Below are positions 3,781 to 58,515 of a DNA stretch of 64,000 bases, piece by piece (the first letter of the stretch is position 1; the number at the start of each line of letters is the position of its first letter). The stretch is from assembly GCA_965237985.1 (NCBI GenBank), contig OZ250161.1:1701677-1765676 (forward strand), given 5' to 3'. Source of the stretch: Candidatus Oxydemutatoraceae bacterium. GTDB taxonomy: Bacteria > Pseudomonadota > Gammaproteobacteria > Poriferisulfidales > Oxydemutatoraceae. Made by a program: the position numbers and the translations under genes. The notes below the pieces were generated by a model, which saw only the letters and a program-made list of their open reading frames with translations, was not told where the DNA came from and did no database searches.

Positions 3781-5485
3781 CCGGCACCTCCAAAGACAAC
3801 TGCCTGATCTCATCATCAAGCGACTTCAAATCCTGAGTGATGTCCTCAAGTTTTCTCAGGGGAGTGAATTTGTAAAAGTACTTCGTGAAATTGATTTCAT
3901 ATCCAACCTTATCCCTGGAACGATTCATCCATGAGTCCGGAAGGTGTGGCTGGACCTCTCTCTCAAAGTATTCATCCACGGATTCCGTAAGGGGGATCCT
4001 TTCGTGGTCTCTTTTTGAAGTGTCTGGTTTTGGATTACCCTTCCTGTCAGTCTTGACGTCTCCATTTTCGAAAAGAGGCTGTTCAATGACCACTTTTGTG
4101 TAGCCAAAGAATTCGTTGGAGTAGATTTTACAGAACTCTCCCTCTTCAAAGGACGTATAGATGTCATACAAATCTTCTGATTGTTGTTTCGTCACTTTCT
4201 TTCTCTTACTGCCAAGAGATTTCCGCATCTGTTTGAAAAAACTGGAACCGTCAATCAACTGAACTTTAGCTCTACGTTCAGGAGATTTTTTATTGGTCAC
4301 AATCCAAAAATAAGTCGTAATGCCCGAGTTGAAGAATAGTTGATCAGGAAGATATACAATGGTTTCCAACCAGTCGTTCTCGATGATCCACCTGCGGATT
4401 TCGGATTCACCACTCCCGGCATCACCCGTAAACAGGGGAGAGCCATTGAAGACGATCCCGATACGGGACCCTTCCGGACTCATCTTGTGCATCAGGTGTT
4501 GGAGAAAAAGGAGGGAACCGTCTGAGATCCGAGGAGTCCCAACGAAGAATCGACCATTCGGATCTTTACTCTCTTCCTTTACAAAATTCTTTTCGGACTT
4601 CCAACTGACCCCAAATGGGGGGTTGGTAATCATGTAGTCAAATGTCCGACCCTGGAGCCGATCGTCTGAAATGGATGAACATGGACCATGAATATTTTCG
4701 GGGTTTTCATCCATCATCAGGAGATCGGATTTGCAGATGGAATAGGTCACGTCATTCAGTTCCTGACCGTGGAGAATAATCTTCAGGTCTGGGTTGATGT
4801 TCTCGTGAACCCACTTCTTGCCGATGGTCAACATGCCGCCAGTCCCACAACAGGGGTCAAAGACTGTCCGGATCAATCCCTCGCCTTGCAGGTCTGGTTT
4901 GTCGCCTCCAAACAGAAAGGAGACCAACAGTTTTACCACATCACGGGGTGTGAAGTGGTCGCCACTTTCCTCGTTGGACATTTCCGAGAACCTGCGAAGG
5001 AGTTCCTCGCAGACTAATCCCATTTCGTGGTTGTCAATGACAGATGGGTGAAGATTGATCTCCGTGAACTTGTCAATGAGAAGATACAGGCGTTTGTGTT
5101 TGTGAAGTTTTTCAACCAGTGGTTCGAGTGAGAAATTTTCGATGATGTCCCGCACGTTTTTTGAGTAACCCTGAACATAGTTGTCGAAGTTCATAAAGAC
5201 GTTGGTGGGGTCACTCTTAATCCGGGATAGGTCGAACTTTGATGTATTGAAGAAGGAAAGACCAACCTGTCTCAGGATCACTGGAGAGGGATCAGAGAGT
5301 TGATCTTTGAATTTGTCGTAAAGTTCATACACCTCATCCTTCCTGGGCTCGAGGACACAATCCAGACGCCTCATGACCACGAACGGAAGAATGACTCGAC
5401 CGTATTCACTGGGTTTGAAGAGACCACGAAGGACGTCATCCGCTGACGACCAGATCAAGGATGACAGGCTGCTTGCACTGTTCAA
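3773..5485 (-). CDS. hsdM: Type I R-M N6-adenine methyltransferase subunit M
   Basis: IWSSADDVLRG, HFTPRDVV, FDPCCGTGGML (motif I), NPPFG (motif IV), GSPLFTGDAGSGESEIRRW and GYEINF. Confidence 0.95.
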   Translation of the reverse strand: MNSASSLSSLIWSSADDVLRGLFKPSEYGRVILPFVVMRRLDCVLEPRKDEVYELYDKFKDQLSDPSPVILRQVGLSFFNTSKFDLSRIKSDPTNVFMNFDNYVQGYSKNVRDIIENFSLEPLVEKLHKHKRLYLLIDKFTEINLHPSVIDNHEMGLVCEELLRRFSEMSNEESGDHFTPRDVVKLLVSFLFGGDKPDLQGEGLIRTVFDPCCGTGGMLTIGKKWVHENINPDLKIILHGQELNDVTYSICKSDLLMMDENPENIHGPCSSISDDRLQGRTFDYMITNPPFGVSWKSEKNFVKEESKDPNGRFFVGTPRISDGSLLFLQHLMHKMSPEGSRIGIVFNGSPLFTGDAGSGESEIRRWIIENDWLETIVYLPDQLFFNSGITTYFWIVTNKKSPERRAKVQLIDGSSFFKQMRKSLGSKRKKVTKQQSEDLYDIYTSFEEGEFCKIYSNEFFGYTKVVIEQPLFENGDVKTDRKGNPKPDTSKRDHERIPLTESVDEYFEREVQPHLPDSWMNRSRDKVGYEINFTKYFYKFTPLRKLEDITQDLKSLDDEIRQLSLEVPGE

Positions 5486-7414: not shown

Positions 7415-8827
7415 TTAATCCTTGGTTTTCGCTGAAACAGGGCGGGGGCGTTTCCAGCTGCGTACCGTGTGCTGTTTGCTGCGCGAGATCGTCAGTTGTT
7501 CTTTTTCAACGTTGTGAGTGATGACGGAGCCTGCCCCGATCGTGGCACTTTTTCCGATGTGAACGGGGGCAATAATCTGGGTGTTCGAACCGACAAACAC
7601 ATCATCTTCTATGACCGTTTGATGTTTGCTTTTGCCGTCGTAATTGCAGGTGATGGTTCCTGCTCCGATGTTGACTTCCTTTCCCACCGTGCTGTCGCCG
7701 ATATAACTCAAGTGCCCGACTTTGCTGCTCCCGCCAATCCTGCTGTTCTTTATTTCCACAAAGTTTCCGACTTTCGCCGCTTCCCCCAGCACCGTTTCGG
7801 GCCGGATACGTGCATAAGGACCCAGGACACAGCCTTTGCCGCATTGCAGTGCATCAAGGTGGGAAAAGGCCTTGACTTGTGTGCCATCTTCCAGGGTCAC
7901 ATCCTTCAGGTAGCAGTAGGGGCCAATTTCCACGTCGTTCCCGAGCTTCACCTCGCCGACGAAAATTACGCCGACATCGACGCAGACATTTTCTCCTGCT
8001 TCCACATTCCCGCGAATGTAGAGATTATTGGAGTCTCGCAGACGCACCCCGGACTTGCGCAAAGCGGCGGCACGATCCTGGTAAATCCAGTGCTCCACGT
8101 GTTCCAGTTCTGCCAAAGTATTGACACCGCGTGCTTCCTCGGCATTTTCAATCTGGCAGGATGCTACCCGGTGTCCGCTCGCAACAGCAATGCCGATGCA
8201 ATCTGTCAGGTAGTACTCCGACTGGCGATTGTCATTTCGGACTCGTCGAATCAGTTGTTGCAGTTCGCCGGCCCGTGCTGCCACCACTCCGACGTTGACT
8301 TCCAAAATGGCTTTCTCTGCCGTGCTGGCATCGGCTTCTTCCACGATGCGCAATACCCGCCCGTCATCATCGCGCAACACTCTGCCGTAACCGTGCGGGT
8401 TTTCGAGAACAGAGGTCAGAAACACCAGTTCGGCATCGGCAAGCCTGCCCAGTACCGTGGCACAACACGCCGCGGTCAACAGCGGCATATCGGCATAGAG
8501 AACCAGTACCGGAAGATCGGGTTCAAGTTTTGGCAATACACAGGCGACGGCATGCGCTGTGCCGTGCCTTTCCTCCTGGCTGTGCCAGTGAATGGGAATC
8601 TTTTGAGGCCAGCTGGCGGTGTCGTTTTCAACTGCCGTGCGGAGCTGATCGGCGTGGTGGCCGAGGACCAGATGCAAGGCATCCGGTGCCAGTTGTGTGA
8701 TGGTGTCAAGCGTATACGCGAGCATGGGTTTTCCGGCCAGGTCCAGCAAAGGTTTGGGCCTGCTGGTAGCGGTTCGTTTGCCCTCGCCGGCGGCCAGCAA
8801 AATGACGGCTTTTCTCGTTTTATGCAT
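7415..8827 (-). CDS. glmU: Bifunctional UDP-GlcNAc pyrophosphorylase / GlcN-1-P acetyltransferase
   Basis: LLAAGEGKR..PKPL, hexapeptide LbH region GNFVEIK..HLSYIGD..GAGTITCNYDG, directly upstream of glmS. True start is ATG 8827; the longer ORF in the track runs into the repeat array. Confidence 0.97.
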   Translation of the reverse strand: MHKTRKAVILLAAGEGKRTATSRPKPLLDLAGKPMLAYTLDTITQLAPDALHLVLGHHADQLRTAVENDTASWPQKIPIHWHSQEERHGTAHAVACVLPKLEPDLPVLVLYADMPLLTAACCATVLGRLADAELVFLTSVLENPHGYGRVLRDDDGRVLRIVEEADASTAEKAILEVNVGVVAARAGELQQLIRRVRNDNRQSEYYLTDCIGIAVASGHRVASCQIENAEEARGVNTLAELEHVEHWIYQDRAAALRKSGVRLRDSNNLYIRGNVEAGENVCVDVGVIFVGEVKLGNDVEIGPYCYLKDVTLEDGTQVKAFSHLDALQCGKGCVLGPYARIRPETVLGEAAKVGNFVEIKNSRIGGSSKVGHLSYIGDSTVGKEVNIGAGTITCNYDGKSKHQTVIEDDVFVGSNTQIIAPVHIGKSATIGAGSVITHNVEKEQLTISRSKQHTVRSWKRPRPVSAKTKD

Positions 8828-11800
8828 TTTGGCTGGGGCAGCTGGCGGGCGGTCCGGTCCTTTTGTTCTGGCCACGTGTTGCTGCCTGGCTGTGCCAGTG
8901 AATGGGAATCTTTTGAGGCCAGCTGGCGGTGTCGTTTTCAACTGCCGTGCGGAGCTGATCGGCGTGGTGGCCGAGGACCAGATGCAAGGCATCCGGTGCC
9001 AGTTGTGTGATGGTGTCAAGCGTATACGCGAGCATGGGTTTTCCGGCCAGGTCCAGCAAAGGTTTGGGCCTGCTGGTAGCGGTTCGTTTGCCCTCGCCGG
9101 CGGCCAGCAAAATGACGGCTTTTCTCGTTTTATGCATTTTGGCTGGGGCAGCTGGCGGGCGGTCCGGTCCTTTTGTTCTGGCCGCGTGTTGCTGCCTGGC
9201 TGTGCCAGTGAATGGGAATCTTTTGAGGCCAGCTGGCGGTGTCGTTTTCAACTGCCGTGCGCGGAGCTGATCGGCGTGGTGGCCGAGGACCAGATGCAAG
9301 GCATCCGGTGCCAGTTGTGTGATGGTGTCAAGCGTATACGCGAGCATGGGTTTTCCGGCCAGGTCCAGCAAAGGTTTGGGCCTGCTGGTAGCGGTTCGTT
9401 TGCCCTCGCCGGCGGCCAGCAAAATGACGGCTTTTCTCGTTTTATGCATTTTGGCTGGGGCAGCTGGCGGGCGGTCCGGTCCTTTTGTTCTGGCCACGTG
9501 TTGCTGCCTGGCTGTGCCAGTGAATGGGAATCTTTTGAGGCCAGCTGGCGGTGTCGTTTTCAACTGCCGTGCGGAGCTGATCGGCGTGGTGGCCGAGGAC
9601 CAGATGCAAGGTATCCGGTGCCAGTTGTGTGATGGTGTCAAGCGTATACGCGAGCATGGGTTTTCCGGCCAGGTCCAGCAAAGGTTTGGGCCTGCTGGTA
9701 GCGGTTCGTTTGCCCTCGCCGGCGGCCAGCAAAATGACGGCTTTTCTCGTTTTATGCATTTTGGCTGGGGCAGCTGGCGGGCGGTCCGGTCCTTTTGTTC
9801 TGGCCGCGTGTTGCTGCCTGGCTGTGCCAGTGAATGGGAATCTTTTGAGGCCAGCTGGCGGTGTCGTTTTCAACTGCCGTGCGCGGAGCTGATCGGCGTG
9901 GTGGCCGAGGACCAGATGCAAGGCATCCGGTGCCAGTTGTGTGACGGTGTCAAGCGTATACGCGAGCATGGGTTTTCCGGCCAGGTCCAGCAAAGGTTTG
10001 GGCCTGCTGGTAGCGGTTCGTTTGCCCTCGCCGGCGGCCAGCAAAATGACGGCTTTTCTCGTTTTATGCATTTTGGCTGGGGCAGCTGGCGGGCGGTCCG
10101 GTCCTTTTGTTCTGGCCGCGTGTTGCTGCCTGGCTGTGCCAGTGAATGGGAATCTTTTGAGGCCAGCTGGCGGTGTCGTTTTCAACTGCCGTGCGCGGAG
10201 CTGATCGGCGTGGTGGCCGAGGACCAGATGCAAGGTATCCGGTGCCAGTTGTGTGATGGTGTCAAGCGTATACGCGAGCATGGGTTTTCCGGCCAGGTCC
10301 AGCAAAGGTTTGGGCCTGCTGGTAGCGGTTCGTTTGCCCTCGCCGGCGGCCAGCAAAATGACGGCTTTTCTCGTTTTATGCATTTTGGCTGGGGCAGCTG
10401 GCGGGCGGTCCGGTCCTTTTGTTCTGGCCGCGTGTTGCCTGGCGTGCCAGTGAATGGGAATCTTTTGAGGCCAGCTGGCGGTGTCGTTTTCAACTGCCGT
10501 GCGAGGAGCTGATCGGCGTGGTGGCCGAGGACCAGATGCAAGGCATCCGGTGCCAGTTGTGTGACGGTGTCAAGCGTATACGCGAGCATGGGTTTTCCGG
10601 CCAGGTCCAGCAAAGGTTTGGGCCTGCTGGTAGCGGTTCGTTTGCCCTCGCCGGCGGCCAGCAAAATGACGGCTTTTCTCGTTTTATGCATTTTGGCTGG
10701 GGCAGCTGGCGGGCGGTCCGGTCCTTTTGTTCTGGCCGCGTGTTGCTGCCTGGCTGTGCCAGTGAATGGGAATCTTTTGAGGCCAGCTGGCGGTGTCGTT
10801 TTCAACTGCCGTGCGCGGAGCTGATCGGCGTGGTGGCCGAGGACCAGATGCAAGGCATCCGGTGCCAGTTGTGTGACGGTGTCAAGCGTATACGCGAGCA
10901 TGGGTTTTCCGGCCAGGTCCAGCACCTGCTGGTGCCGGTTCGTTTGCCCTCGCCGGCGGCCAGCAAAATGACGGCTTTTCTCGTTTTATGCATTTTGGCT
11001 GGGGCAGCTGGCGGGCGGTCTGGTCCTTTTGTTCTGGCCGCGTGTTGCTGCCTGGCTGTGCCAGTGAATGGGAATCTTTTGAGGCCAGCTGGCGGTGTCG
11101 TTTTCAACTGCCGTGCGCGGAGCTGATCGGCGTGGTGGCCGAGGACCAGATACAAGGCATCCGGTGCCAGTTGTGTGACGGTGTCAAGCGTATACGCGAG
11201 CATGGGTTTTCCGGCCAGGTCCAGCAAAGGTTTGGCCTGCTGGTAGCGGTTCGTTTGCCCTCGCCGGCGGCCAGCAAAATGACGGCTTTTCTCGTTTTAT
11301 GCATTTTGGCTGGGGCAGCTGGCGGGCGGTCCGGTCCTTTTGTTCTGGCCGCGTGTTGCTGCCTGGCTGTGCCAGTGAATGGGAATCTTTTGAGGCCAGC
11401 TGGCGGTGTCGTTTTCAACTGCCGTGCGCGGAGCTGATCGGCGTGGTGGCCGAGGACCAGATGCAAGGCATCCGGTGCCAGTTGTGTGACGGTGTCAAGC
11501 GTATACGCGAGCATGGGTTTTCCGGCCAGGTCCAGCAAAGGTTTGGGCCTGCTGGTGCCGGTTCGTTTGCCCTCGCCGGCGGCCAGCAAAATGACGGCTT
11601 TTCTCGTTTTATGCATTTTGGCTGGGGCAGCTGGCGGGCGGTCCGGTCCTTTTGTTCTGGCCGCGTGTTGCTGCCTGGCTGTGCCAGTGAATGGGAATCT
11701 TTTGAGGCCAGCTGGCGGTGTCGTTTTCAACTGCCGTGCGCGGAGCTGATCGGCGTGGTGGCCGAGGACCAGATACAAGGCATCCGGTGCCAGTTGTGTG

Positions 11801-12368
11801 ACGGTGTCAAGCGTATACGCGAGCATGGGTTTTCCGGCCAGGTCCAGCAAAGGTTTGGCCTGCTGGTAGCGGTTCGTTTGCCCTCGCCGGCGGCCAGCAA
11901 AATGACGGCTTTTCTCGTTTTATGCATTTTGGCTGGGGCAGCTGGCGGGCGGTCTGGTCCTTTTGTTCTGGCCGCGTGTTGCTGCCTGGCTGTGCCAGTG
12001 AATGGGAATCTTTTGAGGCCAGCTGGCGGTGTCGTTTTCAACTGCCGTGCGCGGAGCTGATCGGCGTGGTGGCCGAGGACCAGATGCAAGGCATCCGGTG
12101 CCAGTTGTGTGATGGTGTCAAGCGTATACGCGAGCATGGGTTTTCCGGCCAGGTCCAGCAAAGGTTTGGGCCTGCTGGTAGCGGTTCGTTTGCCCTCGCC
12201 GGTTCGGCCCTCGCCGTTTTATGCGGCCAGCAAAATGACGGCTTTTCTCGTTTTATGCATTTTGGCTGGGGCAGCTGGCGGGCGGCCCTCGCCGGCGGCC
12301 AGCCGGTCCTTTTGTTGGCTGGCCGCGTGTTGTTCTGCCTGGCTGTGTTCCTGCCTGGCTGTGTTCCT
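8575..12368. repeat. Tandem array of about 12 copies of a ~310-312 bp unit (about 60 bp upstream plus the first ~84 codons of glmU)
   Basis: Unit starts cctggctgtgccagtgaatgggaatc at about 8575, 8885, 9195, 9507, 9817, 10129, 10437, 10749, 11051, 11362, 11674 and 11985. The final copy is scrambled at about 12200-12368. Copies differ by small indels and SNPs. Confidence 0.97.
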
Positions 12369-17119: not shown

Positions 17120-18966
17120 GGCTGCCAGGCTGCCGGAGGACGTGCCGTGGCCGGCGGTGCGCAATGTCGTCTCAGCGGGCGACTCTGTGCACGGGCGAAG
17201 TCTGGCGAGTGCCGTGCCGGAGGATGTGCCGCGGACCGGCGGTGCGCAATGTCGTCTCAGCGGGCGACTCTGCCTGCACGGGATTTCCGAAGTCTGGCGA
17301 GCTGCCAGGCCGCCGAGGACGTGTCGTGGACCGGCGGTGCGCAATGTCATCTCAGCGGGCGACTCTGCCTGCACGGGATTTCCGAGGACGTGTCTGGTGC
17401 GCTGCCAGGTTGCCGGAGGAGTCTGGCGAGTGCCGCGGGACCGGCGGTGCGCAATGTCATCTCAGCGGGCGACTCTGCCTGCACGGGATTTCCGAAGTCT
17501 GGCGAGCTGCCAGGCTGCCGGAGGATGTGCCGCGGACCGGCGTGTGCGCAATGTCATCTCAGCGGGCGACTCTGCCTGCACGGGATTTTCGAAGTCTGGC
17601 GAGCTGCCAGGCCGCCGAGGACGTGTCATGGGCCGGCGGTGCGCAATGTCGTCTCAGTGAGCGGCTCTGCCTGCACGGGATTTCCGAAGTCTGGCGAGCT
17701 GCCAGGTTGCCGGAGGATGTGCCGCGGACCGGCGGTGCGCAATGTCGTCTCAGCGGGCGACTCTGCCTGCACGGGATTTCCGAAGTCTGGCGAGTTGAGG
17801 TTGCCGGAGGTGTGCCGCGGACCGGCGGTGCGCAATGTCATCTGCGGGCGACTCTGCCTGCACGGGATTTCCGATGTCGGCGGTGCGCAATGTCGTCTCA
17901 GTCATCTCAGCGGGCGGCTCCACCTGCAACGGGATTTCCGAAGTCTGGCGAGCTGCCAGGCCGCCGAGGACGTGTCGTGGGCCGGCGGTGCGCAATGTCG
18001 TCTCAGCGGGCGGCTCTGCCTGCACGGGATTTCCGAAGTCTGGCGAGCTGCCAGGCCGCCTGTGCCGCGGGCCGGCGGTGCGCAATGTCATCTCAGCGGG
18101 CGACTCTGCCTGCACGGGATTTTCGAAGTCTGGCGAGCTGCCAGGCCGCCGAGGACGTGTCGTGGGGCGGCGGTGCGCAATGTCATCTCAGCGGGCGACT
18201 CTGCCTCGTGCCGGAGGATGTGCCGCGGACCGGTGGTGCGCAATGTCATCTCAGCGGGCGGCTCCACCTGCAACGGGATTTCCGAAGTCTGGCGAGCTGC
18301 CAGGCTGCCGGAGGACGTGCCGCGGGCCGGCGGTGCGCAATGTCATCTCAGCGAGCGGCTCTGCCTGCACGGGATTTCCGAAGTCTGGCGAGCTGCCAGG
18401 TTGCCGGAGGATGTGCCGCGGACCGACGGTGCGCAATGTCATCTCAGCGGCGGCTCTGCCTGCACGGGATTTCCGAAGTCTGGCGAGCTGCCAGGTTGCC
18501 GGAGGATGTGCCGCGGACCGGCGGTGCGCAATGTCATCTCAGCGGGCGGCTCCACCTGCAACGGGATTTCCGAAGTCTGGCGAGCTGCCAGGCTGCCGGA
18601 GGACGTGCCGCGGGCCGGCGGTGCGCAATGTCGTCTCAGCGAGCGGCTCTGCCTGCACGGGATTTCCGAGGTCTGGCGAGCTGCCAGGCCGCCGAGGACG
18701 TGCCGCGGACCGACGGTGCGCAATGTCGTCTCAGCGAGCGGCTCTGCCTGCACGGGATTTCCGAAGTCTGGCGAGCTGCCAGGTTGCCGGAGGATGTGCC
18801 GCGGACCGGCGGTGCGCAATGTCGTCTCAGCGGGCGGCTCTGCCTGCACGGGATTTCCGAGGTCTGGCGAACTGCCAGGCTGCCGGAGGACGTGCCGCGG
18901 GCCGGCGGTGCGCAATGTCATCTCAGCGGGCGACTCTACCTGCACGGGATTTCCGAAGTCTGGCGA
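17120..18966. repeat. Tandem array of about 20 copies of a ~96 bp GC-rich unit (95-97 bp, some internally deleted)
   Basis: Consensus ggcggtgcgcaatgtcRtctcagcgggcgRctctgcctgcacgggatttccgaagtctggcgagctgccaggYtgccggaggaYgtgccgcggRcc. The caatg motif recurs at 18529, 18626, 18721, 18817 and 18913. Confidence 0.95.
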
Positions 18967-28424: not shown

Positions 28425-29167
28425 AAGCCGGGCGGGGAAGCTTTCTGGCGACTGAGCAATGCCTCCTGTCGTCCTGTCTATTTGCCCGATGTGCTTCCGT
28501 CATGTCTCCCGGCACGTGATTGCACTTTCGCGGGTTTTTTGGCGGCAGTCGGGAAACTCGGAAAAGTCACAGGAAAGATGAGCCGGGCGGGGAAGCTTTC
28601 CGGCGACTGAGCGATTCCTCCTGTCGTCCTGTCTATTTGCCCGATGTGCTTCCGTCATGTCTCCCGGCACGTGATTGCACTTTCGCGGGTTTTTTGGCGG
28701 CAGTCAGGAAACTCGGAAAAGTCACAGGAAAGATGAGCCGCGCGGGGAAGTTTTCTGGCGACTGAGCGATGTTTCCAGTTCGGTGTGTCCTGTCTATTTA
28801 CCCGATGTGCTTCCGTCATGTCCCCCGCCTCGTGATTGCACTTTCGCGGGTTTTTTGGCGGCAGTCAGGAAACTCGGAAAAGTCACAGGAAAGGTGAGCC
28901 GCGCGGGGAAGTTTTCCGACGACTGCGCGATGCCTCCTGTCGTCCTGTCTATTTACCCGATGTGCTTCCGTCATGTCCCCCGCCTCGTGATTGCACTTTC
29001 GCGGGTTTTTTGGCGGCAGTCAGGAAACTCGGAAAAGTCACAGGAAAGGTGAGCCAAGCGGGGAAGTTTTCTGGCGACTGAGCGATGTTTCCAGTTCGGT
29101 GTGTCTTGTCTATTTGCCCGATGTGCTTCCGTCATGTCCCTCGCCTCGTGATTGCACTTTCGCGGGT
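28425..29167. repeat. Tandem array of about 4.7 copies of a 155-161 bp unit between dctQ and thrB
   Basis: The agcc..gcggggaag motif recurs at about 28426, 28581, 28736, 28897 and 29052. Two alternating internal variants (gcctcctgtcgtcctg vs gtttccagttcggtgtgtc). Confidence 0.93.
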
Positions 29168-30105
29168 TCCGGAACAGCTGCGGCACAGTTTCTGTGAAAT
29201 CGCAAAATATTTTTGAAGTAATCGGGATTTTTTATTTGTGTCAACTGCCCCGACAGGGGGAACAATTTGCTTTTTAGGCGCGAGATCCAGAAGCGCAGAG
29301 CGGCGCGGCGCAATGCGTCCCGCCAGACACATTCTTCTCCAGCATCGAGCGTGCGTCTGGCACAGTAGCTTTGCATCATGGCATGGAGCCGCTGTTTTTC
29401 CAGTTCGCCACGGGCGTTGAAACACCAGGCATTGATAGTGACCGCAAGGTCATAAATCAGCGCGTCATCACCGGCAAAATAGAAATCCAGTATGCCGGTC
29501 AGCATGCGACCGGAAAACAGCACATTGTCTGGGAACAGGTCCGCGTGAATGGTTCCTTGCGGCAACATGCCCAAAGATAATGTTTGCTGATGGAGCAGTT
29601 CACTGAGCAACAGTGTGCTGTCTTCGGGTGGTAACAAAGGCAGGAGCCGGTTCCCGTTTTTTATGCACCAGGCGAGCCCGCGAACGTTTTCGCGCCGATC
29701 CATAAAACTTTTCATGGCCATGTGCATCGCTGCGAGCGCGTCACCCACCAGGCGGCAGTGTGAGACGGTCGGGGTGCTGGCAGTACAGCCGGCGAGGTGC
29801 GCCACCAGAACCGCAGGCTTTCCGCGTAACTCTTGCAGGTAGTAGCCGTCCACATTGGCAACCGGGTTCGGTGCCGGCAAACCTGCACGCGCGACATGCG
29901 CCATGAGCGCCAGGTAGTAGGGCAGTTCGCGGTGTGCCAACCACTCGAACAGGGTCAGCACGTACCGCCCGTTGCTGGTATCCACGTAGTAGTTGGTGTT
30001 CACCACACCCTCGCTGATGCCTCGCAGGCTGACCAGCTTCCCAACGGCGTAACGGTCGAGGTATTTCTCAACCTGAGTTTCAGTGAGGTGGGTGTATACA
30101 GACAC
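29110..30105 (-). CDS. thrB: Homoserine kinase type II (APH-like fold)
   Basis: SVYT.L, GISEGVVNTNY, YVLTLFE, IHADLFPDNVLF, DFYFA and AALRFWISRL. Likely GTG start at 30105. The stop codon lies inside the repeat array. Confidence 0.92.
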   Translation of the reverse strand: MSVYTHLTETQVEKYLDRYAVGKLVSLRGISEGVVNTNYYVDTSNGRYVLTLFEWLAHRELPYYLALMAHVARAGLPAPNPVANVDGYYLQELRGKPAVLVAHLAGCTASTPTVSHCRLVGDALAAMHMAMKSFMDRRENVRGLAWCIKNGNRLLPLLPPEDSTLLLSELLHQQTLSLGMLPQGTIHADLFPDNVLFSGRMLTGILDFYFAGDDALIYDLAVTINAWCFNARGELEKQRLHAMMQSYCARRTLDAGEECVWRDALRRAALRFWISRLKSKLFPLSGQLTQIKNPDYFKNILRFHRNCAAAVPEPAKVQSRGEGHDGSTSGK

Positions 30106-41540: not shown

Positions 41541-42338
41541 TTGCACGTGGTGGATCGTTTTCTGGTTATCGCCAACTGGAAGCAGAACGGCGACCGTGTT
41601 GCAAATCAGCAGTTGCTGAGTGCCGTGCTTGTGGCGGGACCTTGGCGGGGAATCGAGGTTATAGTCTGCCCACCGCTCGTGTATATTGAACAGGTTGCCA
41701 CCATTTTGGCAGAAAGTTTCATGATGCTTGGCGGTCAGCAGGCAAGTGACCGGCGGGGAGGTGCTTATACAGGGGAAGTATCCGCCACCATGCTTGCCGA
41801 ATTTGGTTGCAAGTGGGTGGTGGTAGGTCATTCGGAACGACGTTTGCACTATGGTGAGAACGAAGAACGCATTGCCAGGAAGCTCCAGGCTGTGTGTGAC
41901 TCCGGGATGATTCCGATCCTGTGTGTCGGGGAAACGCTGGAGCAGCGCGATGCCGGAACAGACCGGGAAACGGTCGATCGGCAGTTGCAGGTTTTACAAA
42001 AGCTGTGTGACAGTGAAGGAGAACAGGCGAGTGAAATGGTGGTTGCTTACGAGCCGGTGTGGGCGATCGGGTCTGGGCAGGTTCCTGCGCCAGGTGATAT
42101 CGAAGGCATGCATGGTTTCATCAAGTCTCGTTTGGAAAAGTTGCTGGGGAAAAGGGGACGGGAAAGCAGGGTGGCGTACGGCGGCAGCGTCAATTGTGCG
42201 ACTGCGCCTGGCCTGCTGGCTTTGGACCATGTCGACGGCATTCTGGTGGGCGGGGCATCGTTGCATGCGGAAAGCTTTGTCGGGCTATGTTCTCTGGCGG
42301 CGGAAGCGGTTGGCGAACGTGGTGTGCAGACATCATAA
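41541..42338 (+). CDS. tpiA: Triosephosphate isomerase
   Basis: ANWKQN, GAYTGEVS, GHSERR, AYEPVWAIG, YGGSV and LVGGASL. Confidence 0.97.
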   Translation: MHVVDRFLVIANWKQNGDRVANQQLLSAVLVAGPWRGIEVIVCPPLVYIEQVATILAESFMMLGGQQASDRRGGAYTGEVSATMLAEFGCKWVVVGHSERRLHYGENEERIARKLQAVCDSGMIPILCVGETLEQRDAGTDRETVDRQLQVLQKLCDSEGEQASEMVVAYEPVWAIGSGQVPAPGDIEGMHGFIKSRLEKLLGKRGRESRVAYGGSVNCATAPGLLALDHVDGILVGGASLHAESFVGLCSLAAEAVGERGVQTS

Positions 42339-42357
42339 TTTTACATAGGAGTATTTT

Positions 42358-42762
42358 GTGTTATACGGGGTTTTGCTTGGGTTTGATGCTGTTCTGGCCG
42401 TAGTTTTGATCACGCTTATTCTGGTTCAAAGGGGTCGGGGGGCGGAAGTAGGTGCTGCTTTTGGTGCCGGTGCGTCCGCATCTGTTTTCGGCGCGCGCGG
42501 AATGGTGTCGTTTTTGACCAAACTGGTGGCGGTGCTTTCCGCAGTGTTTTTACTGAACAGTTTGCTTCTGGCTTACGTGGCCAACCGTGATTTCGTTTCC
42601 CAAAGCGTGACCGAGCAGAGTGTTGTCGAGGAAAGAAGCGAGGTCGATCAGAAGATTGACTCCGAATTGGAAGCATTGCATCCGGAAGCGGTACCTGATG
42701 CAACTTTGGCTGAGGACGTTCCCGGCTCGGCACCATCGCCGATTCCTAAAATTCCCGATTAG
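42358..42762 (+). CDS. secG: Preprotein translocase subunit SecG
   Basis: LILVQRGRGAEVGAAFGAGASASVFGARG...FLTK; located between tpiA and tRNA-Leu. Confidence 0.95.
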   Translation: MLYGVLLGFDAVLAVVLITLILVQRGRGAEVGAAFGAGASASVFGARGMVSFLTKLVAVLSAVFLLNSLLLAYVANRDFVSQSVTEQSVVEERSEVDQKIDSELEALHPEAVPDATLAEDVPGSAPSPIPKIPD

Positions 42763-42764
42763 AA

Positions 42765-42850
42765 GCCGATGTGGTGGAATTTGGTAGACACGCTGTCTTG
42801 AGGGGGCAGTGGCGAAAGTCGTGCCGGTTCGAGTCCGGCCATCGGCACCA
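42765..42850 (+). tRNA. tRNA-Leu (GAG), first copy
   Basis: GCCGATG...CATCGGC-A-CCA acceptor stem, anticodon arm CTGTC-TTGAGGG-GGCAG, long variable arm and GGTTCGAGTCC T-arm. Canonical position after secG. Confidence 0.97.
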
Positions 42851-42930
42851 GTTTAAGCAACGTGATTGACGCGAAGTCGGATGAGTGCTTTCTCGATGCC
42901 GTCGCCGATTCCTAAAATTCCCGATTAGAA

Positions 42931-45487
42931 GCCGATGTGGTGGAATTTGGCAGACACGCTGTCTTGAGGGGGCAGTGGCGAAAGTCGTGCCGGTTCGAGT
43001 CCGGCCATCGGCACCAGTTTAAGCAACGCGATTGACGTGAAGTCGGATGAGTGCTTTCTCGATGCCGTCGCCGATTCCTAAAATTCCCGATTAGAAGCCG
43101 ATGTGGTGGAATTTGGCAGACACGCTGTCTTGAGGGGGCAGTGGCGAAAGTCGTGCCGGTTCGAGTCCGGCCATCGGCACCAGTTTAAGCAACGCGATTG
43201 ACGCGAAGTCGGATGAGTGCTTTCTCAAATGCCGTCGCCGATTCCTAAAATTCCCGATTAGAAGCCGATGTGGTGGAATTTGGCAGACACGCTGTCTTGA
43301 GGGGGCAGTGGCGAAAGTCGTGCCGGTTCGAGTCCGGCCATCGGCACCAGTTTGACCGATTGACGTGAAGTCGGATGAGTGCTTTCTCAAATGCCGTCGC
43401 CGATTCCTAAAATTCCCGATTAGAAGCCGATGTGGTGGAATTTGGCAGACACGCTGTCTTGAGGGGGCAGTGGCGAAAGTCGTGCCGGTTCGAGTCCGGC
43501 AACGCGATTGACGCGAAGTCGGATGAGTGCTTTCTCGATGCCGTCGCCGATTTCCAAAGTTCCCGATTAGAAGCCGATGTGGTGGAATTTGGTAGACACG
43601 TTGTCTTGAGGGGGCAGTGGCGAAAGTCGTGCCGGTTCGAGTCCGGCCATCGGCACCAGTTTAAGCGACGCGATTGACGCGAAGTCGGATGAGTGCTTTC
43701 TCGATGCCGTCGCCGATTCCTAAAATTCCCGATTAGAAGCCGATGTGGTGGAATTTGGCAGACACGCTGTCTTGAGGGGGCAGTGGCGAAAGTCGTGCCG
43801 GTTCGAGTCCGGCCATCGGCACCAGTTTAAGCAACGCGATTGACGTGAAGTCGGATGAGTGCTTTCTCGATGCCGTCGCCGATTTCCAAAGTTCCCGATT
43901 GGAAGCGATGTGGTGGAATTTGGTAGACACGTTGTCTTGAGGGGGCAGTGGCGAAAGTCGTGCCGGTTCGAGTCCGGTCATCGGCACCAGTTTAAGCGAC
44001 GCGATTGACGCGAAGTCGGATGAGTGCTTTCTCGATGCCGTCGCCGATTCCTAAAATTCCCGATTAGAAGCCGATGTGGTGGAATTTGGCAGACACGCTG
44101 TCTTGAGGGGGCAGTGGCGAAAGTCGTGCCGGTTCGAGTCCGGCCATCGGCACCAGTTTAAGCGACGCGATTGACGTGAAGTCGGATGAGTGCTTTCTCA
44201 AATGCCGTCGCCGATTCCTAAAATTCCCGATTAGAAGCCGATGTGGTGGAATTTGGCAGACACGCTGTCTTGAGGGGGCAGTGGCGAAAGTCGTGCCGGT
44301 TCGAGTCCGGCCATCGGCACCAGTTTAAGCAACGCGATTGACGCGAAGTCGGATGAGTGCTTTCTCGATGCCGTCGCCGATTTCCAAAGTTCCCGATTAG
44401 AAGCCGATGTGGTGGAATTTGGCAGACACGCTGTCTTGAGGGGGAAGTGGCGAAAGTCGTGCCGGTTCGAGTCCGGCCATCGGCACCAGTTTAAGCAACG
44501 TGATTGACGCGAAGTCGGATGAGTGCTTTCTCAAATGCCGTCGCCGATTCCTAAAATTCCCGATTAGAAGCCGATGTGGTGGAATTTGGCAGACACGCTG
44601 TCTTGAGGGGGCAGTGGCGAAAGTCGTGCCGGTTCGAGTCCGGCCATCGGCACCAGTTTAAGCAACGTGATTGACGCGAAGTCGGATGAGTGCTTTCTCA
44701 ATGCCGTCGCCGATTCCTAAAATTCCCGATTAGAAGCCGATGTGGTGGAATTTGGCAGACACGCTGTCTTGAGGGGGCAGTGGCGAAAGTCGTGCCGGTT
44801 CGAGTCCGGCCATCGGCACCAGTTTAAGCGACGCGATTGACGCGAAGTCGGATGAGTGCTTTCTCAAATGCCGTCGCCGATTTCCAAAGTTCCCGATTGG
44901 AAGCGATGTGGTGGAATTTGGCAGACACGTTGTCTTGAGGGGGCAGTGGCGAAAGTCGTGCCGGTTCGAGTCCGGCCATCGGCACCAGTTTAAGCAACGT
45001 GATTGACGCGAAGTCGGATGAGTGCTTTCTCGATGCCGTCGCCGATTCCTAAAAACTCCCGATTAGAAGCCGATGTGGTGGAATTTGGCAGACACGCTGT
45101 CTTGAGGGGGCAGTGGCGAAAGTCGTGCCGGTTCGAGTCCGGCCATCGGCACCAGTTTAAGCAACGTGATTGACGCGAAGTCGGATGAGTGCTTTCTCAA
45201 ATGCCGTCGCCGATTCCTAAAATTCCCGATTAGAAGCCGATGTGGTGGAATTTGGCAGACACGCTGTCTTGAGGGGGCAGTGGCGAAAGTCGTGCCGGTT
45301 CGAGTCCGGCCATCGGCACCAGTTTAAGCAACGTGATTGACGCGAAGTCGGATGAGTGCTTTCTCGATGCCGTCGCCGATTCCTAAAATTCCCGATTAGA
45401 AGCCGATGTGGTGGAATTTGGCAGACACGCTGTCTTGAGGGGGCAGTGGCGAAAGTCGTGCCGGTTCGAGGCCGGTCATCGGCACCA
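42931..45487 (+). tRNA. 16 additional tRNA-Leu(GAG) copies (about 10 structurally intact, the others with stem mutations or deletions)
   Basis: Copy 5 lacks the 3' acceptor strand. Copies 8 and 14 lack a 5' C. Copy 11 has an anticodon-stem mismatch. Copies 6, 8 and 14 carry a C>T in the anticodon stem. Copy 17 has T-arm changes. Confidence 0.88.
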
Positions 45488-45660
45488 GTTTAAGCAAAGC
45501 GATTGACGCGAAGTCGGATGAGTGCTTTTTGGCGTTCGTCTGTTGGCAGATTGTCAGCGCCGGGTGCTTCCCTCCAATGCGCCTTTCATGACACTTTGCA
45601 GCTCGCCTGCTCGCCTGCTTGCCTGCATGCCTGCTTTCTGGTTTCCCACAATCCAGCGCA

Positions 45661-46479
45661 GCCGACAATGAGCCAGGGCAGTTGCTTGACGAGGCGATCT
45701 GTCGGCTGGTTCGCCCGGGGATTTCTCGTCCGCAGGGGGTGGTTTGTAGCGTTGCGCCGGTTCCAGTTTCCATACCAAAGGAAAGAACGCAGCAGGGTCT
45801 GCCTGCAACTGCCGACCAGCCTGCTTTCCCCCACCTTTGGTGAATCAGGGTTTTGTGCCTAGTTGCGGCGGTGCGGTTGGGTTGAGCAAGTCCCGCGGGT
45901 ACAGCTGCCGGCTGGTGAGCCGTTCGCGTGCTGCCGACAATGAGCCAGGGCGGTTGCTTGACGAGGCGATCTGTCGGCTGGTTCGCCCGGGGATTTCTCG
46001 TCCGCAGGGGGTGGTTTGTAGCGTTGCGCCGGTTCCAGTTTCCATACCAAAGGAAAGAACGCAGCAGGGTCTGCCTGCAACTGCCGACCAGCCTGCTTTC
46101 CCCCACCTTTGGTGAATCAGGGTTTTGCGCCTAGTTGCGGCGGTGCGGTTGGGTTGAGCAAGTCCCGCGGGTACAGCTGCCGGCTGGTGAGCCGTTCGCG
46201 TGCTGCCGACAATGAGCCAGGGCGGTTGCTTGACGAGGCGATCTGTCAGCTGGTTCGCCCGGGGATTTCTCGTCCGCAGGGGGTGGTTTGTAGCGTTGCG
46301 CCGGTTCCAGTTTCCATACCAAAGGAAAGAACGCAGCAGGGTCTGCCTGCAACTGCCGACCAGCCTGCTTTCCCCCACCTTTGGTGAATCAGGGTTTTGT
46401 GCCTGGTTGCGGCGGCGCGGTTGGGTTGAGCAAGTCCCGCGGGTACAGCTGCCGGCTGGTGAGCCGTTCGCGTGCTGCC
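45661..46479. repeat. Tandem array of 3 copies of a 272 bp unit
   Basis: gccgacaatgagccagggc at 45661, 45933 and 46205; the array ends at about 46479. Confidence 0.95.
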
Positions 46480-46847
46480 TTTCGGCACGTCGTCAGGTGT
46501 CTTTGGTGAATGAAGGTCGCGTGCTCTTGGGATCATTCACGAGCAATACCAGGTTGCTGGCTGGTTTTTGTGTCATTTGTTTTTTTACCGGCAAGGGTTC
46601 CAGCAGGGAAGTCATGAGCTGAAAAAACGGGCATTTCTAAATGGGAAAAAGCGGACAGGATCAGCCTGGGCGTGAGGGTGGACGTGTTGCGTACTGAACG
46701 CGGGTTGTTTATCCTCCCTCCAACGCAAGCCATGCTGTTTCTTGGGTGTTCCTTGTGTACTTTTCGGTACATGGCAAAAGAACTCCCCCAATCGGCATGA
46801 GTGCGTAAAAAACATTTTCTCTATTTGAAACAACAAGGACAGGTGAT

Positions 46848-48320
46848 ATGCATGATTTTCTAGATTTGTCAATTTGGGAATACTCGCTGATTATTTTTGC
46901 TGTAGTGCTGGTTTCCAAACTGTTCAGCAAGAAAACAAGAACTGTTGATGTGCTGTGGTTCATTGTGGCGGGGGCCGTGCTCACGAACCTCGACCTGTTG
47001 CCGGAGCATAATGAATTTCTGGAAACCATCGGTGAATGGGGAATTGTGTTCATCATGTTTGCTCTTGGTCTCGAGGAGGATCTGGGGCGTTTTTCGCAGG
47101 GACTGAAGCGTTGCATGGGCATCGCTTTGATCGGTGCGGCATTTCCGTTTCTGGCTGGTTACTCAACGGCCAGCATATTTGGCTACGACCATGGTTCCGC
47201 TATGCTGTGGGGGCTGACAATGACTGCAACTGCGGTCAGTCTGACGATGATGAGCCTGCGCGGCGACTTTATGCATCGGTCCACGGCAGCGACGGGGATT
47301 ATGACGGCCGCCGTAGTTGACGACGTATTGTCCCTGATTGGCGTTGCGATTCTTATTCCGATCATTTTGGTAAGTGCCGCCGACGACGGTGCCGGTGCGA
47401 TAAGTTTTACGGAAATTCTGTGGATCTGTTTCAAGGTCATCATCTTTTTTGCCATTACTTTGTTTATGGGGCTGGTCGCCTTTCCTGAGCGCACTCCGAA
47501 GAAACTGCCTCCGAACCCAAGTCTTTACCAGAGGCTTGATTACCAGGTCAGCCGTGCGATGGGCTTCTTGGGCGCAAGACGGTTCTTAATGTTGCACAAG
47601 GGTGAGTTCACGCCTCTGATAATGCTTTTTATCGCAATGTTTCTAGGCGTTACGGCGCATAAGCTCGGATTCCACCCCGCCATCGGTGCTTACTTTGCTG
47701 GATTGTTTCTGCATTCCGACTATTTTGTGAACGTGAAAATCAAAAGGACCCGCAACGAGGAAGGGGAAGTCATCGAGGAAGAAGAGAGGGATGACCAGTT
47801 CGAAAAAACCAGATATGTGATTGAGCATTTAGCCTTCACGATTTTTGGTCCAATCTTTTTCGTCAATCTGGGCGGCAAGCTGGTATTCGATGTCGATGTG
47901 ATGCTAAAGGCACTGCCGGTGGTTGCTGTCCTCTATCTTGCAGTCGTTGTTTTTCAGATCCTTTCGGCTACTTTGGCAGCGCGCTTTACGGGTGGATACA
48001 AGTGGCACGAAGGTGTGATGATTGGTTTCGGCATGCTGGGTCGGGCGGAACTGGCCTTTATTGTGATCGACATTGCTTTTGTCGATCACAAGATTATTGA
48101 TGTCACCCAGTTTTATGTTTTGATGATCACCGCGTTTTTGCTGAACATCACGGTGCCGCTCAGTCTCAAATGGTGGAAGCCCTACTATTTGGGCTTCAAG
48201 CGGCTCAGTGTTCTTGGTGTCTGCCTGTCCCGTCCAGAACCGGCACCCGTTCCGACGGATATGCCTGAGTACCGTGACATGATGGATGAAGAGCGAAAGC
48301 GGTATCTGAAAGACGATTAG
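46848..48320 (+). CDS. Cation:proton antiporter (CPA2/NapA-like Na+/H+ exchanger)
   Basis: Multi-TM protein with MFALGLE, TATAVS, AAVVDDV, IGAYFAGL, PIFFV and GMLGRAELA. RBS ACAGGTG upstream. Confidence 0.9.
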   Translation: MHDFLDLSIWEYSLIIFAVVLVSKLFSKKTRTVDVLWFIVAGAVLTNLDLLPEHNEFLETIGEWGIVFIMFALGLEEDLGRFSQGLKRCMGIALIGAAFPFLAGYSTASIFGYDHGSAMLWGLTMTATAVSLTMMSLRGDFMHRSTAATGIMTAAVVDDVLSLIGVAILIPIILVSAADDGAGAISFTEILWICFKVIIFFAITLFMGLVAFPERTPKKLPPNPSLYQRLDYQVSRAMGFLGARRFLMLHKGEFTPLIMLFIAMFLGVTAHKLGFHPAIGAYFAGLFLHSDYFVNVKIKRTRNEEGEVIEEEERDDQFEKTRYVIEHLAFTIFGPIFFVNLGGKLVFDVDVMLKALPVVAVLYLAVVVFQILSATLAARFTGGYKWHEGVMIGFGMLGRAELAFIVIDIAFVDHKIIDVTQFYVLMITAFLLNITVPLSLKWWKPYYLGFKRLSVLGVCLSRPEPAPVPTDMPEYRDMMDEERKRYLKDD

Positions 48321-54675: not shown

Positions 54676-55360
54676 GAAAACCGGTTTTGGAAACGAAGGA
54701 ATGAAAATGTTTGATTACGTCGTTGTTGGTGCCGGGTCGGCGGGTTGCGTCTTGGCAAATCGTTTGAGCGAAGACCCAAATGTGAGCGTGCTGCTCTTGG
54801 AAGCCGGTGGCAATGACCGGAGCATCTTCATCCAGATGCCGACGGCTCTTTCAATATCCATGAATATGAAGTTTTACGACTGGTACTTCGAGACCGACCC
54901 GATGGAAAAACCGGTTTTGGAAACGAAGGAATGAAAATGTTTGATTACGTCGTTGTTGGTGCCGGGTCGGCGGGTTGCGTCTTGGCAAATCGCTTGAGCG
55001 AAGACCCAAATGTGAGCGTGCTGCTCTTGGAAGCCGGTGGCAATGACCGGAGCATCTTCATCCAGATGCCGACGGCTCTTTCAATACCCATGAATATGAA
55101 GCGCTACAACTGGCACTTCAAGATCGCCCCGGTGGAAAAACCGGTTTTGGAAACGGAGGAATGAAAATGTTTGATTACGTCGTTGTTGGTGCCGGGTCGG
55201 CGGGTTGCGTCTTGGCAAATCGCTTGAGCGAAGACCCAAATGTGAGCGTGCTGCTCTTGGAAGCCGGTGGCAATGACCGGAGCATCTTCATCCAGATGCC
55301 GACGGCTCTTTCAATACCCATGAATATGAAGCGCTACAACTGGTACTTCGAGACCGACCC
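54676..55360 (+). repeat. Tandem triplication of a 230 bp unit (RBS plus first ~67 codons of betA); gives two 77-aa truncated copies at 54701-54934 and 54931-55164
   Basis: atgaaaatgtttgattacg at 54701, 54931 and 55161. Confidence 0.96.
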
Positions 55361-56855: not shown

Positions 56856-56908
56856 CGAGCCAACCTGAGCTTTCGTCGCTGACCCTGAAAGACTTTCGGT
56901 CTGTGCCT

Positions 56909-58515
56909 GTACGAACCTGGGCATAACCCTCCACTCACTACGTGCCGTGGCTGTCGCAGGCAGCGCGGGCGACACCGCAATCAGAAGCCGTAGCGACGGT
57001 CAGTGCGTGCGTCGCGCCTGTCGTTATGGTGGTAAACCATCGCAGACATCCCTGGAGCAGTGCTTTCTCAGGATACCAGGGCCGGGTGGTCCGGGGTTTT
57101 TGAGGCTGTGCAACGCGTTTGACCAGATGCCGGTGGGTGGATCCTGCCAGTGCGGACCGCTCGATGAGATGGTGCCGTACGAACCTGGGCATAACCCTCC
57201 ACTCACTACGTGCCGTGGCTGTCGCAGGCAGCGCGGGCGACACCGCAATCAGAAGCCGTAGCGACGGTCAGTGCGTGCGTCGCGCCTGTCGTTATGGTGG
57301 TGAACCATCGCAGACATCCCTGGAGCAGTGCTTTCTCAGGATGCCAGGGCCGGGTGGTCCGGGGTTTTTGAGGCTGTGCAACGTGTTTGACCAGATGCCG
57401 GTGGGTGGTTCCTGCCAGTGCGGACCGCTCGATGAGATGGTGCCGTACGAACCTGGGCATAACCCTCCACTCACTACGTGCCGTGGCTGTCGCAGGCAGC
57501 GCGGGCGACACCGCAATCAGAAGCCGTAGCGACGGTCAGTGCGTGCGTCGCGCCTGTCGTTATGGTGGTGAACCATCGCAGACATCCCTGGAGCAGTGCT
57601 TTCTCAGGATGCCAGGGCCGGGTGGTCCGGGGTTTTTGAGGCTGTGCAACGTGTTTGACCAGATGCCGGTGTGTGGTTCCTGCCAGTGCGGACCGCTCGA
57701 TGAGATGGTGCCGTACGAACCTGGGCATAACCCTCCACTCACTACGTGCCGTGGCTGTCGCAGCGCGGGGGGCGACACCGCAATCAGAAGCCGTAGCGAC
57801 GGTCAGTGCGTGCGTCGCGCCTGTCGTTATGGTGGTGAACCATCGCAGACATCCCTGGAGCAGTGCTTTCTCAGGATGCCAGGGCCGGGTGGTCCGGGGT
57901 TTTTGAGGCTGTGCAACGTGTTTGACCAGATGCCGGTGGGTGGTTCCTGCCAGTGCGGACCGCTCGATGAGATGGTGCCGTACGAACCTGGGCATAACCC
58001 TCCACTCACTACGTGCCGTGGCTGTCGCAGCGCGCGGGGCGACACCGCAATCAGAAGCCGTAGTGACGGTCAGTGCGTGCGTCGCGCCTGTCGTTATGGT
58101 GGTAAACCATCGCAGACATCCCTGGAGCAGTGCTTTCTCAGGATGCCAGGGCCGGGTGGTCCGGGGTTTTTGAGGCTGTGCAACGTGTTTGACCAGATGC
58201 CGGTGGGTGGTTCCTTCCAGTGCGGACCGCTTGATGAGATGGTGCCGTACGAACCTGGGCATAACCCTCCACTCACTACGTGCCGTGGCTGTCGCAGCGC
58301 GGGGGGCGACACCGCAATCAGAAGCCGTAGCGACGGTCAGTGCGTGTGTCGCGCCTGTCGTTATGGTGGTGAACCATCGCAGACATCCCTGGAGCAGTGC
58401 TTTCTCAGGATACCAGGGCCGGGTGGTCCGGGGTTTTTGAGGCTGTGCAACGTGTTTGACCAGATGCCGGTGGGTGGTTCCTGCCAGTGCGGACCGCTCG
58501 ATGAGATGGTGCCGT
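56909..58515. repeat. Tandem array of 6 copies of a 267-268 bp unit between the convergent betA and choX2
   Basis: gtacgaacctgggcataacc at 56909, 57177, 57445, 57713, 57980 and 58247. Confidence 0.96.

Follow-up and report, generated by a model that had tools for sequence, protein, structure and literature searches.

A 17-unit tandem array of tRNA-Leu(GAG) genes behind secG, probably a passenger of genome-wide tandem duplication in a gammaproteobacterium

How does a tRNA gene that nearly all related genomes hold once come to be repeated head to tail in one of them? The question is raised by a 64,000-nucleotide stretch of the genome of a Candidatus Oxydemutatoraceae bacterium (Gammaproteobacteria; GenBank assembly GCA_965237985.1, contig OZ250161.1), in which the gene secG is followed by a tandem array of 17 units built around tRNA-Leu(GAG). 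The genome is 2,000,500 bp long and consists of one contig, of which this stretch, called the window here and numbered from its first base, covers positions 1701677-1765676. From the anatomy of the array, from its genome-wide context and from independent events found in congeners, we infer how it arose and that it is neutral: it is probably a passenger, amplified by a sequence-independent process of tandem duplication that acts throughout the genome and reshaped by unequal exchange, and the surplus of tRNA is probably tolerated, not selected for.

The array occupies 42736-45528 on the + strand and, when cut at a unit anchor, consists of 17 head-to-tail units of 147-168 bp. Several methods agree on this, as the initial annotation had claimed from reading the sequence. 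ARAGORN identifies 16 genes for tRNA-Leu(gag), all on the + strand and within 42765-45487, with only one other tRNA in the window; Tandem Repeats Finder (TRF) reports a 166-bp period across 42736-43500 and 43499-45528, with 95-98% matches, plus a super-period of 333 bp; and a BLAST search of the whole genome with copy 1 finds 17 places, all of them within the array. Units 1 to 16 measure 166, 166, 167, 162, 147, 166, 166, 165, 167, 166, 167, 166, 167, 165, 168 and 166 bp, after which comes the last unit. Each unit begins with the last 27 bp of secG, including the stop codon, followed by 2 bp, an 86-bp tRNA with an ACCA end, and a 51-bp spacer. The intact secG gene (42358-42762, + strand, 134 aa; Pfam SecG, 6.3e-16) stands before the array, and its last 9-12 codons or so form the 5' part of the first unit; the secG part of the unit probably extended a further 10 bp or so, which have since diverged at the junction. 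All 16 junctions read GCTTTCTC(G/AA/A)ATGCCGTCGCCGATT, and the right breakpoint of the unit follows GCTTT, inside the loop of a 12-bp hairpin.

The state of the individual copies was assessed by scoring them against the Rfam tRNA model, for which the gathering score is 29 bits. At least this score is reached by 16 of the 17 copies, with 12 at 46.7-49.1 bits, two at about 40 and two at about 30; copy 5 is unmatched. Copy 1 (42765-42850; 49.1 bits) carries a T in the D-loop (GGTAGAC) and differs by this base alone from ten identical copies with GGCAGAC, each scoring 46.7 bits and called by both ARAGORN and Rfam: copies 2 (42931-43016), 3 (43097-43182), 4 (43264-43349), 7 (43739-43824), 9 (44070-44155), 10 (44237-44322), 12 (44570-44655), 13 (44736-44821), 15 (45069-45154) and 16 (45236-45321), all on the + strand like the rest of the array. 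The tRNAs of copies 4 and 15 are canonical even though their units differ in length: a small spacer deletion shortens that of copy 4 to 162 bp, and that of copy 15 has an insertion in its secG-tail part. In copy 6 (43573-43658; 46.7 bits), the D-loop T is accompanied by C27>T, so that a G-U replaces a G-C pair. Throughout, the tRNA has the features of its kind: the anticodon is gag in the 16 copies called by ARAGORN, the variable arm has an insert of more than 10 nt in the cmscan alignment, and in 16 units the tRNA sequence ends in ...CATCGGCACCA, with A73 as the discriminator and an encoded CCA.

The other copies are altered to different degrees. Copy 11 (44403-44488; 40.0 bits) has C41>A, which gives a G-A mismatch in the anticodon stem, and copy 17 (45402-45487; 39.6 bits) has U60>G in the T-loop and C65>T in the T-stem. 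Copies 8 (43904-43989; 30.5 bits) and 14 (44902-44987; 30.0 bits) each lack one C from the 5' acceptor strand and carry C27>T, to which copy 8 adds C65>T; the missing C would cost two acceptor pairs, and both copies are, to judge from their sequence, probably non-functional. Copy 5 (43426-43500) is a pseudo-tRNA truncated at its 3' end, matched by BLAST over tRNA positions 1-75 only and called by neither ARAGORN nor Rfam; in the unit alignment, 19 bp are deleted, taking the 3' acceptor strand and the CCA. The tally is 12 good tRNAs, two that are mildly changed, two that are short of an acceptor-stem base and one that is truncated. The defects noticed earlier in the sequence, in copy 5, in copies 8 and 14, and in copies 6, 11 and 17, are thus all confirmed by the Rfam scores together with the unit alignment.

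The copies have diverged by 2-5%, and the way in which their differences are distributed says something about the evolution of the array. The D-loop base is T in copies 1, 6 and 8 and C in the other 14, truncated copy 5 included; T is taken to be ancestral because both congeners, here G001 and G002, carry it. In the alignment of the 17 units, this site and the C27/T site, which are 8 nt apart, occur in all four combinations. Variants in the spacer run in blocks along the array, one being present only in units 2-9 and another in unit 1 and units 11-16, and some variants are limited to the proximal or the distal half. A linked variant had been described as recurring in non-adjacent copies 6, 8 and 14; the recurrence holds, but copy 11 had been overlooked, since TTTCCAAAG is present in copies 6, 8, 11 and 14, and CGTTGTC in copies 6, 8 and 14. 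These mosaic haplotypes and blocks of variants argue for unequal exchange or conversion, which was also the initial suggestion. With one junction common to all its head-to-tail units, mosaic variants and a higher-order period, the array looks much like a satellite.

The genome around the array is full of comparable structures. Over the whole genome, TRF detects 187 non-overlapping arrays with periods of at least 60 bp, which make up 8.85% of the DNA; merging them by smallest period leaves 186 regions, 9.1% of the DNA, with a median of 3.1 copies. The periods extend from 60 to 2000 bp (median 237). Thirteen arrays have at least 10 copies and seven have at least 15, and eight are at least as long as the tRNA array. 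These are not members of one dispersed repeat family, a possibility that was rejected: the unit consensus sequences of 164 of the 187 arrays are unlike that of any other array, and the other 23 fall into eight small clusters. Repeats within coding sequences were rejected as an explanation as well, the periods modulo 3 being split 72/58/57 with no preference for multiples of three. On a crude, greedy map of open reading frames (ORFs), 102 arrays are intergenic, 67 straddle the end of a gene and 18 are contained in genes, and the gene ends that they overlap comprise 74 3' ends and 62 5' ends. An array that includes the 3' end of a gene, as this one includes the tail of secG, is therefore a common sight here. 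With some 186 similar arrays in 9% of the genome, the tRNA was most likely caught up in a general habit of duplication, without having been the object of the amplification; among the roles first proposed for the array, the evidence favours that of a neutral satellite.

Is the same habit found in related bacteria? Array loads were obtained with the same pipeline from sampled DNA of relatives. In the two congeners, they are 16.9% for G001 (29 arrays in 140 kb) and 3.6% for G002 (9 arrays in 140 kb); in four other genera (G003, G005, G015 and G019; 80-120 kb each), they are 0.4-1.0%, and in two further genera of the family, they are 8.1% (G007) and 6.2% (G010; 80 kb each). At the locus itself, the order ftsH, glmM, tpiA, secG, tRNA-Leu, Na+/H+ exchanger is kept in both congeners, and the exchanger gene (46848-48320, + strand; Pfam PF00999) is recognisable as the conserved downstream neighbour by its synteny with them. 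The position of the tRNA directly 3' of secG, in a glmM-(tpiA)-secG context, is common to the window, both congeners and E. coli, where the order is glmM-secG-tRNA-Leu, the tRNA begins 14 bp after secG and its sequence is 77% identical. G002 has a single tRNA and no repeat at this locus. G001 has one intact tRNA and a 369-bp tandem duplication in two copies (L013 6094-6828), which was missed by TRF and recovered by a separate repeat search, and which is an independent event: the 369-bp unit begins within the tRNA, at the anticodon stem, so that its second copy is a pseudo-tRNA truncated at the 5' end. Because this duplication cuts through the tRNA, duplication at this locus takes place without regard to tRNA function.

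The single copy is the rule elsewhere, as the initial annotation had stated from general knowledge. Of 40 relatives from the same order, 38 contain the full tRNA exactly once and one contains it twice, at separate loci; a full copy was not found in the remaining one, an 85%-complete genome. In a sample of the class comprising 400 scored genomes, the source genome has 17 matches, five others have two and none of the other 399 has more than two, these counts being a floor, since scoring was limited to two candidates per genome (unpublished status is flagged for four of the genomes). Across 5,426 E. coli genomes, the median is one place and the maximum two. A 36-mer spanning the unit junction matched no stretch in a metagenome contig collection.

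A simple scenario would account for these observations. A segment of 166 bp, from the last codons of secG through the whole tRNA-Leu(GAG) gene to the loop of the hairpin, would have been duplicated head to tail; repeated unequal exchange or conversion would then have expanded and reshuffled the copies to 17 units. The process that made the first duplication would not have been aimed at the tRNA, and the same habit would lie behind the 186 or so locus-specific arrays of this genome and the loads of its congeners. Several points weigh against this explanation. With 16.8 copies, the tRNA array is in the top 4% of arrays by copy number (sixth of 186), and some selective push for its expansion is possible. 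Variable sites in the tRNA part of the unit are fewer (6 of 86, against 12 of 80 in the rest of the unit) and occur in fewer copies, a trend that fits purifying selection though it is not significant (Fisher p = 0.13, on copies that are not independent). Among the genomes examined, the 17-fold amplification of a tRNA is seen in the source genome only, the number of tRNA matches being 44 in the repeat-rich genomes G002, G007 and G010 and 53 in G001. The exact number 17 is taken from the assembly alone. Lastly, recQ loss, boundary hairpins and a boundary motif all fail to explain the arrays (see below).

The first alternative is that the amplification was selected, the array being held at around 17 copies for the decoding of CUU and CUC or as a buffer against a tRNA-cleaving toxin or defence nuclease. 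The high copy number and the sparser variants in the tRNA part just described are what such selection would leave, and 12 of the 17 copies are fully canonical. There are also precedents: in phage T6, segmental amplification of tRNA-Tyr is reported to overcome a tRNA-cleaving defence (PMC13096335), and laboratory Pseudomonas fluorescens reportedly gains tRNA copies by tandem duplication under selection (PMC7661048, PMC10954465).

The demand for this tRNA, however, does not appear to be raised. CTT and CTC together account for 28.0% of the leucine codons, as against 29.6% and 29.3% in the congeners, so that the comparison of codon usage with relatives, envisaged in the initial annotation as a check on tRNA dosage, reveals no shift. 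CTG (35.7% of leucine codons) and TTG (27.4%) are both commoner and are served by one tRNA gene each; the other anticodons also have one gene apiece, except for Met (four) and Leu-taa (two). The genome has one 16S gene and one rRNA operon. Of the 17 copies, two are mildly changed and three are dead or close to it, two of these three sharing a deletion that has spread within the array. These facts together count against the dosage idea. The duplication in G001 at the same locus destroys its second tRNA copy. Moreover, six other arrays have at least 15 copies, and an Rfam scan of two of these revealed no known RNA. As to the nuclease, none turned up, none having been searched for, and no observation made here hints at a role as a buffer. 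Selected amplification is therefore unlikely, although it deserves to be kept in mind.

Another alternative is that the array is an artefact, in which a short repeat with far fewer real copies was expanded or mis-joined by the assembler. The raw data were approached through Logan contigs, made by a different assembler, from two runs (X1 and X2) of one sample, possibly the one behind the assembly; these contigs were compared with units 1-6 and the left flank. Among the runs listed as containing the stretch, there was none of RNA. The flank contigs, of 12,400 and 11,244 nt, end at 42765, which is the first base of tRNA copy 1, with depths of 162.3 (X1) and 92.3 (X2). A contig of 123 nt from X2, with a depth of 361, bridges the head-to-tail junction between units 2 and 3, and one contig from X1 passes from a unit into the right flank, so that the entry, the junction and the exit are all recovered. 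The listed pieces internal to the repeat have depths of 184.7-893.5 in X2, that is, 2.0-9.7 times the flank, and of 29.5-254.6 in X1. The junction exists in the raw data, and there are hints of many copies. Summed over 42758-43700, the depths would correspond to around 10 units in X1 and 19 in X2, but since depths pool organisms, this figure was not used. Two runs from another study with another organism label (X3 and X4) contain a relative that is about 91% alike at secG and the tRNA, and the junction bins are uncovered there.

It is true that the comparison, made with contigs and not with raw reads, gives no measure of the exact number, and that the X1 pieces, taken singly, do not demand many copies. 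However, the units differ by mosaic substitutions and indels, with unique ones in copies 4, 5, 11, 15 and 17, and assemblers do not invent such differences. The genome has some 186 other arrays, and similar loads are found in G001 and G002, which are separate single-contig genomes. Finally, long reads, if such were used for this assembly, would easily span 2.8 kb. An artefact is thus very improbable.

The 3' ends of tRNA genes are common integration sites for mobile elements, and in G001 the intact tRNA does have a partial copy 3' of it, but remnants of serial integration and excision at an attachment site in tRNA-Leu, or decoy attachment sites as proposed in the initial annotation, deserve next to no credence, because the units hold the entire tRNA with 29 bp of upstream secG sequence and not a 3' fragment alone, the DNA between units is their own spacer with nothing foreign in it, the array is flanked by secG, another local repeat and the Na+/H+ exchanger gene, the one long ORF across the end of the array (45396-46106, - strand) has no Pfam match, no integrase family was found among the eight neighbouring ORFs scanned, and in G001 the sequence after the partial copy matches that after the intact copy for more than 130 bp, which makes it a tandem duplication and not an attL/attR pair.

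How would so many copies be expressed? A promoter-like site, TTGGCG-18-CATAAT, lies just upstream of secG (42310-42339, + strand), known only by its match to the consensus, with which it agrees at 9 of 12 positions. No terminator-like site was found on the + strand from 42590 to 46547. A hairpin of 12 bp follows copy 17 (45515-45542, + strand; -28.2 kcal/mol for 45488-45570); because the breakpoint of the unit is inside the loop of this hairpin, internal units retain its 5' arm alone, and internal spacers indeed fold no better than their shuffles, the full hairpin being present only 3' of copy 17. Since each unit contains a whole tRNA with its CCA and no terminator-like site was found inside the array, co-transcription is most likely, and the copies are probably transcribed together from the putative secG promoter. 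One long precursor might then start at secG, with the tRNAs excised from it by the ordinary processing enzymes; the 12 good copies and the two mildly altered ones would supply the pool of tRNA-Leu(GAG), while three copies would be dead. In E. coli, secG and leuU are co-transcribed.

Another possibility, put forward in the initial annotation, is a promoter for each copy, created at the unit junction. The motif in question, TTCTCR-N17/18-TAAAAT, is real: 11 of the 16 junctions have it, the rest of the window has no further match, and 0.02 matches would be expected by chance. As a promoter, it is weak, however, with 9 of 12 consensus positions at the six TTCTCA junctions and a score under the scanner threshold at the TTCTCG junctions, and TAAAAT is missing at the equivalent place in both congeners.

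If the array is a passenger of a general process, what drives that process? Loss of recQ was considered and rejected, as the load does not follow recQ across the family. The gene was not found in G001 and G002, is a broken remnant in the source genome and is intact in the low-repeat G003; however, G005, G015 and G019, which lack recQ, have only 0.4-1.0% arrays, and G010, which has it, carries 6.2%. The remnant (C1:622171-623161, + strand) contains in-frame TGA stops and is itself overlapped, at 622547-623093, by an array of 189 bp x 3. Loss of mutS, mutL or xseA was rejected too, these genes being present in all five genomes tested, with no pattern. recJ is present in the genus, falls just below the cut-off in four genomes and was not found in the low-repeat G003; the ExoI C-terminal domain was not found in any of the five genomes tested, repeat-rich or not. 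Hairpins as a general feature of array boundaries were also rejected, 60-nt windows giving mean folding energies of -13.3 at array starts, -13.7 at array ends and -13.6 inside; the tRNA array, with a hairpin at its right edge, is an isolated instance. No boundary motif is shared by the arrays, the best k-mers having p-values of 2-3e-4 among 500-1800 k-mers. The process that makes the arrays is sequence-independent, is tolerated mainly where genes stay unbroken, and is described here by its products alone.

Within the window, there are seven arrays, the tRNA array included. A second, unrelated array of 272 bp x 3.0 (98% matches) lies in the same intergenic region, at 45661-46479, and the others are at 8575-12202 (312 bp x 11.7, 98% matches), 17121-18966 (96 bp x 19, 73% matches), 28426-29168 (155 bp x 4.7), 54677-55360 (230 bp x 3.0) and 56903-58515 (267 bp x 6.0). 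The sequence CCTTTGGTGAAT is common to the 272-bp unit (45830-45850) and to the end of the 369-bp unit of G001 (L013 6440-6462), from which it follows that the 272-bp and 369-bp arrays arose from ancestral intergenic sequence.

Elsewhere in the genome, the last 50 or so codons of mutS are present in two extra copies downstream of the intact gene, within an array of 231 bp x 3 (L066 1184-1564, equivalent to C1:128683-129063, - strand), an anatomy like that of the secG tail. At secG and at mutS, the only loci examined for this, congeners have no arrays in common, which suggests a fast turnover. There is also a second tRNA duplication, in which two tRNA-Leu(taa) genes are 2.9 kb apart; in this region (L067, - strand), tRNA matches lie at 1701-1785, 1800-1854, 4620-4704 and 4712-4782, one tRNA-Leu(taa) adjoining a full tRNA and the other a partial match (model positions 9-63). 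The count of tRNA matches in G001 given above is to be compared with 42-44 in four relatives, and some of the matches in that genome form near-identical pairs separated by distances from a few hundred bp up to a few kb, such as 118482/118849 and 1827646/1832019; the most repeat-rich congener therefore carries tRNA duplications too.

These findings have a bearing on the strength of the constraint on tRNA gene dosage in slow-growing bacteria, since a core translation gene from a minimal tRNA set can reach 17-fold in nature, apparently without a shift in codon usage. The genome-wide load weighs more than the tRNA array itself: with 9% of its DNA in some 186 unrelated arrays, this genome is far from the usual compact one, and the habit, common to the congeners and patchy in other genera of the family, offers a tractable case for asking what keeps tandem duplications rare in bacteria. 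A practical consequence is that metagenome-assembled genomes of these lineages made from short reads will collapse much of the genome. More tentatively, an undescribed, lineage-specific process may fill small, symbiont-type gammaproteobacterial genomes with hundreds of locus-specific arrays of 60-2000 bp. If so, this would be a bacterial satellite DNA, making up 9% of the source genome and 4-17% of the sampled DNA of its congeners, which would not be explained by loss of recQ, recJ, mutS/L or xseA; and the source genome would, as a side effect, be a natural experiment on a minimal tRNA set, with 12-14 working copies of a single gene driven by one promoter. In a search of the accessible literature, supplements excepted, neither this array nor the genome-wide load of arrays was found to have been described.

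How does the array compare with systems that are known? It shares with the secG-leuU region of E. coli the order glmM-secG-tRNA-Leu, but E. coli has a single copy. Shewanella genomes are fast-growing and tRNA-rich, whereas the source genome has a single rRNA operon and, apart from the array, a single-copy tRNA set. In Shewanella tRNA arrays, the same tRNA gene has been reported to occur in runs of over 12 copies (Tran et al. 2015, PMC4758250); these runs belong to mixed arrays with other tRNAs, whereas here a single isoacceptor is repeated together with a piece of the upstream protein gene. The same paper defines a tRNA array unit by at least 20 tRNA genes, and the units described, which have many isotypes, are attributed to horizontal transfer (PMC4758250; Morgado and Vicente 2018, PMC5966550). 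Measured by these definitions, the present array has the required density (at least two genes per kb, with 16 genes in 2.79 kb) but, with 16 callable genes and one truncated copy, is below 20; it also has one anticodon only and lies at the native secG locus, in synteny with congeners.

Tandem duplication also alters tRNA gene dosage in Pseudomonas fluorescens SBW25, where large-scale duplications raise the tRNA copy number in laboratory populations (PMC7661048, PMC10954465). In one case, those duplications followed the deletion of a tRNA gene; here, a unit of 166 bp is repeated 17 times, with no evidence of selection. Closer in form is the SegB-driven segmental amplification of tRNA-Tyr in phage T6 under a tRNA-cleaving defence (PMC13096335), in which tandem repetition likewise involves a short segment containing a complete tRNA gene and reportedly raises the supply of tRNA. 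However, it is driven by a homing endonuclease and takes place in a phage, and no such enzyme or pressure has been identified for the present array.

As regards the genome-wide load, the nearest likeness is to Portiera BT, a whitefly endosymbiont in which intergenic tandem repeats proliferate (Sloan and Moran 2013, PMC3673631). The two have in common a host-associated life, intergenic regions filled with repeats, variation in tandem copy number and altered genes for replication and repair. In Portiera, the repeats are mostly 7-bp microsatellites plus one unit of 6.1 kb, in a genome of 0.36 Mb that has lost dnaQ; here, the periods are 60-2000 bp, and mutS, mutL and xseA are present. The array behind secG is different from all these known systems in the size of its unit, in its homogeneity and in its context.

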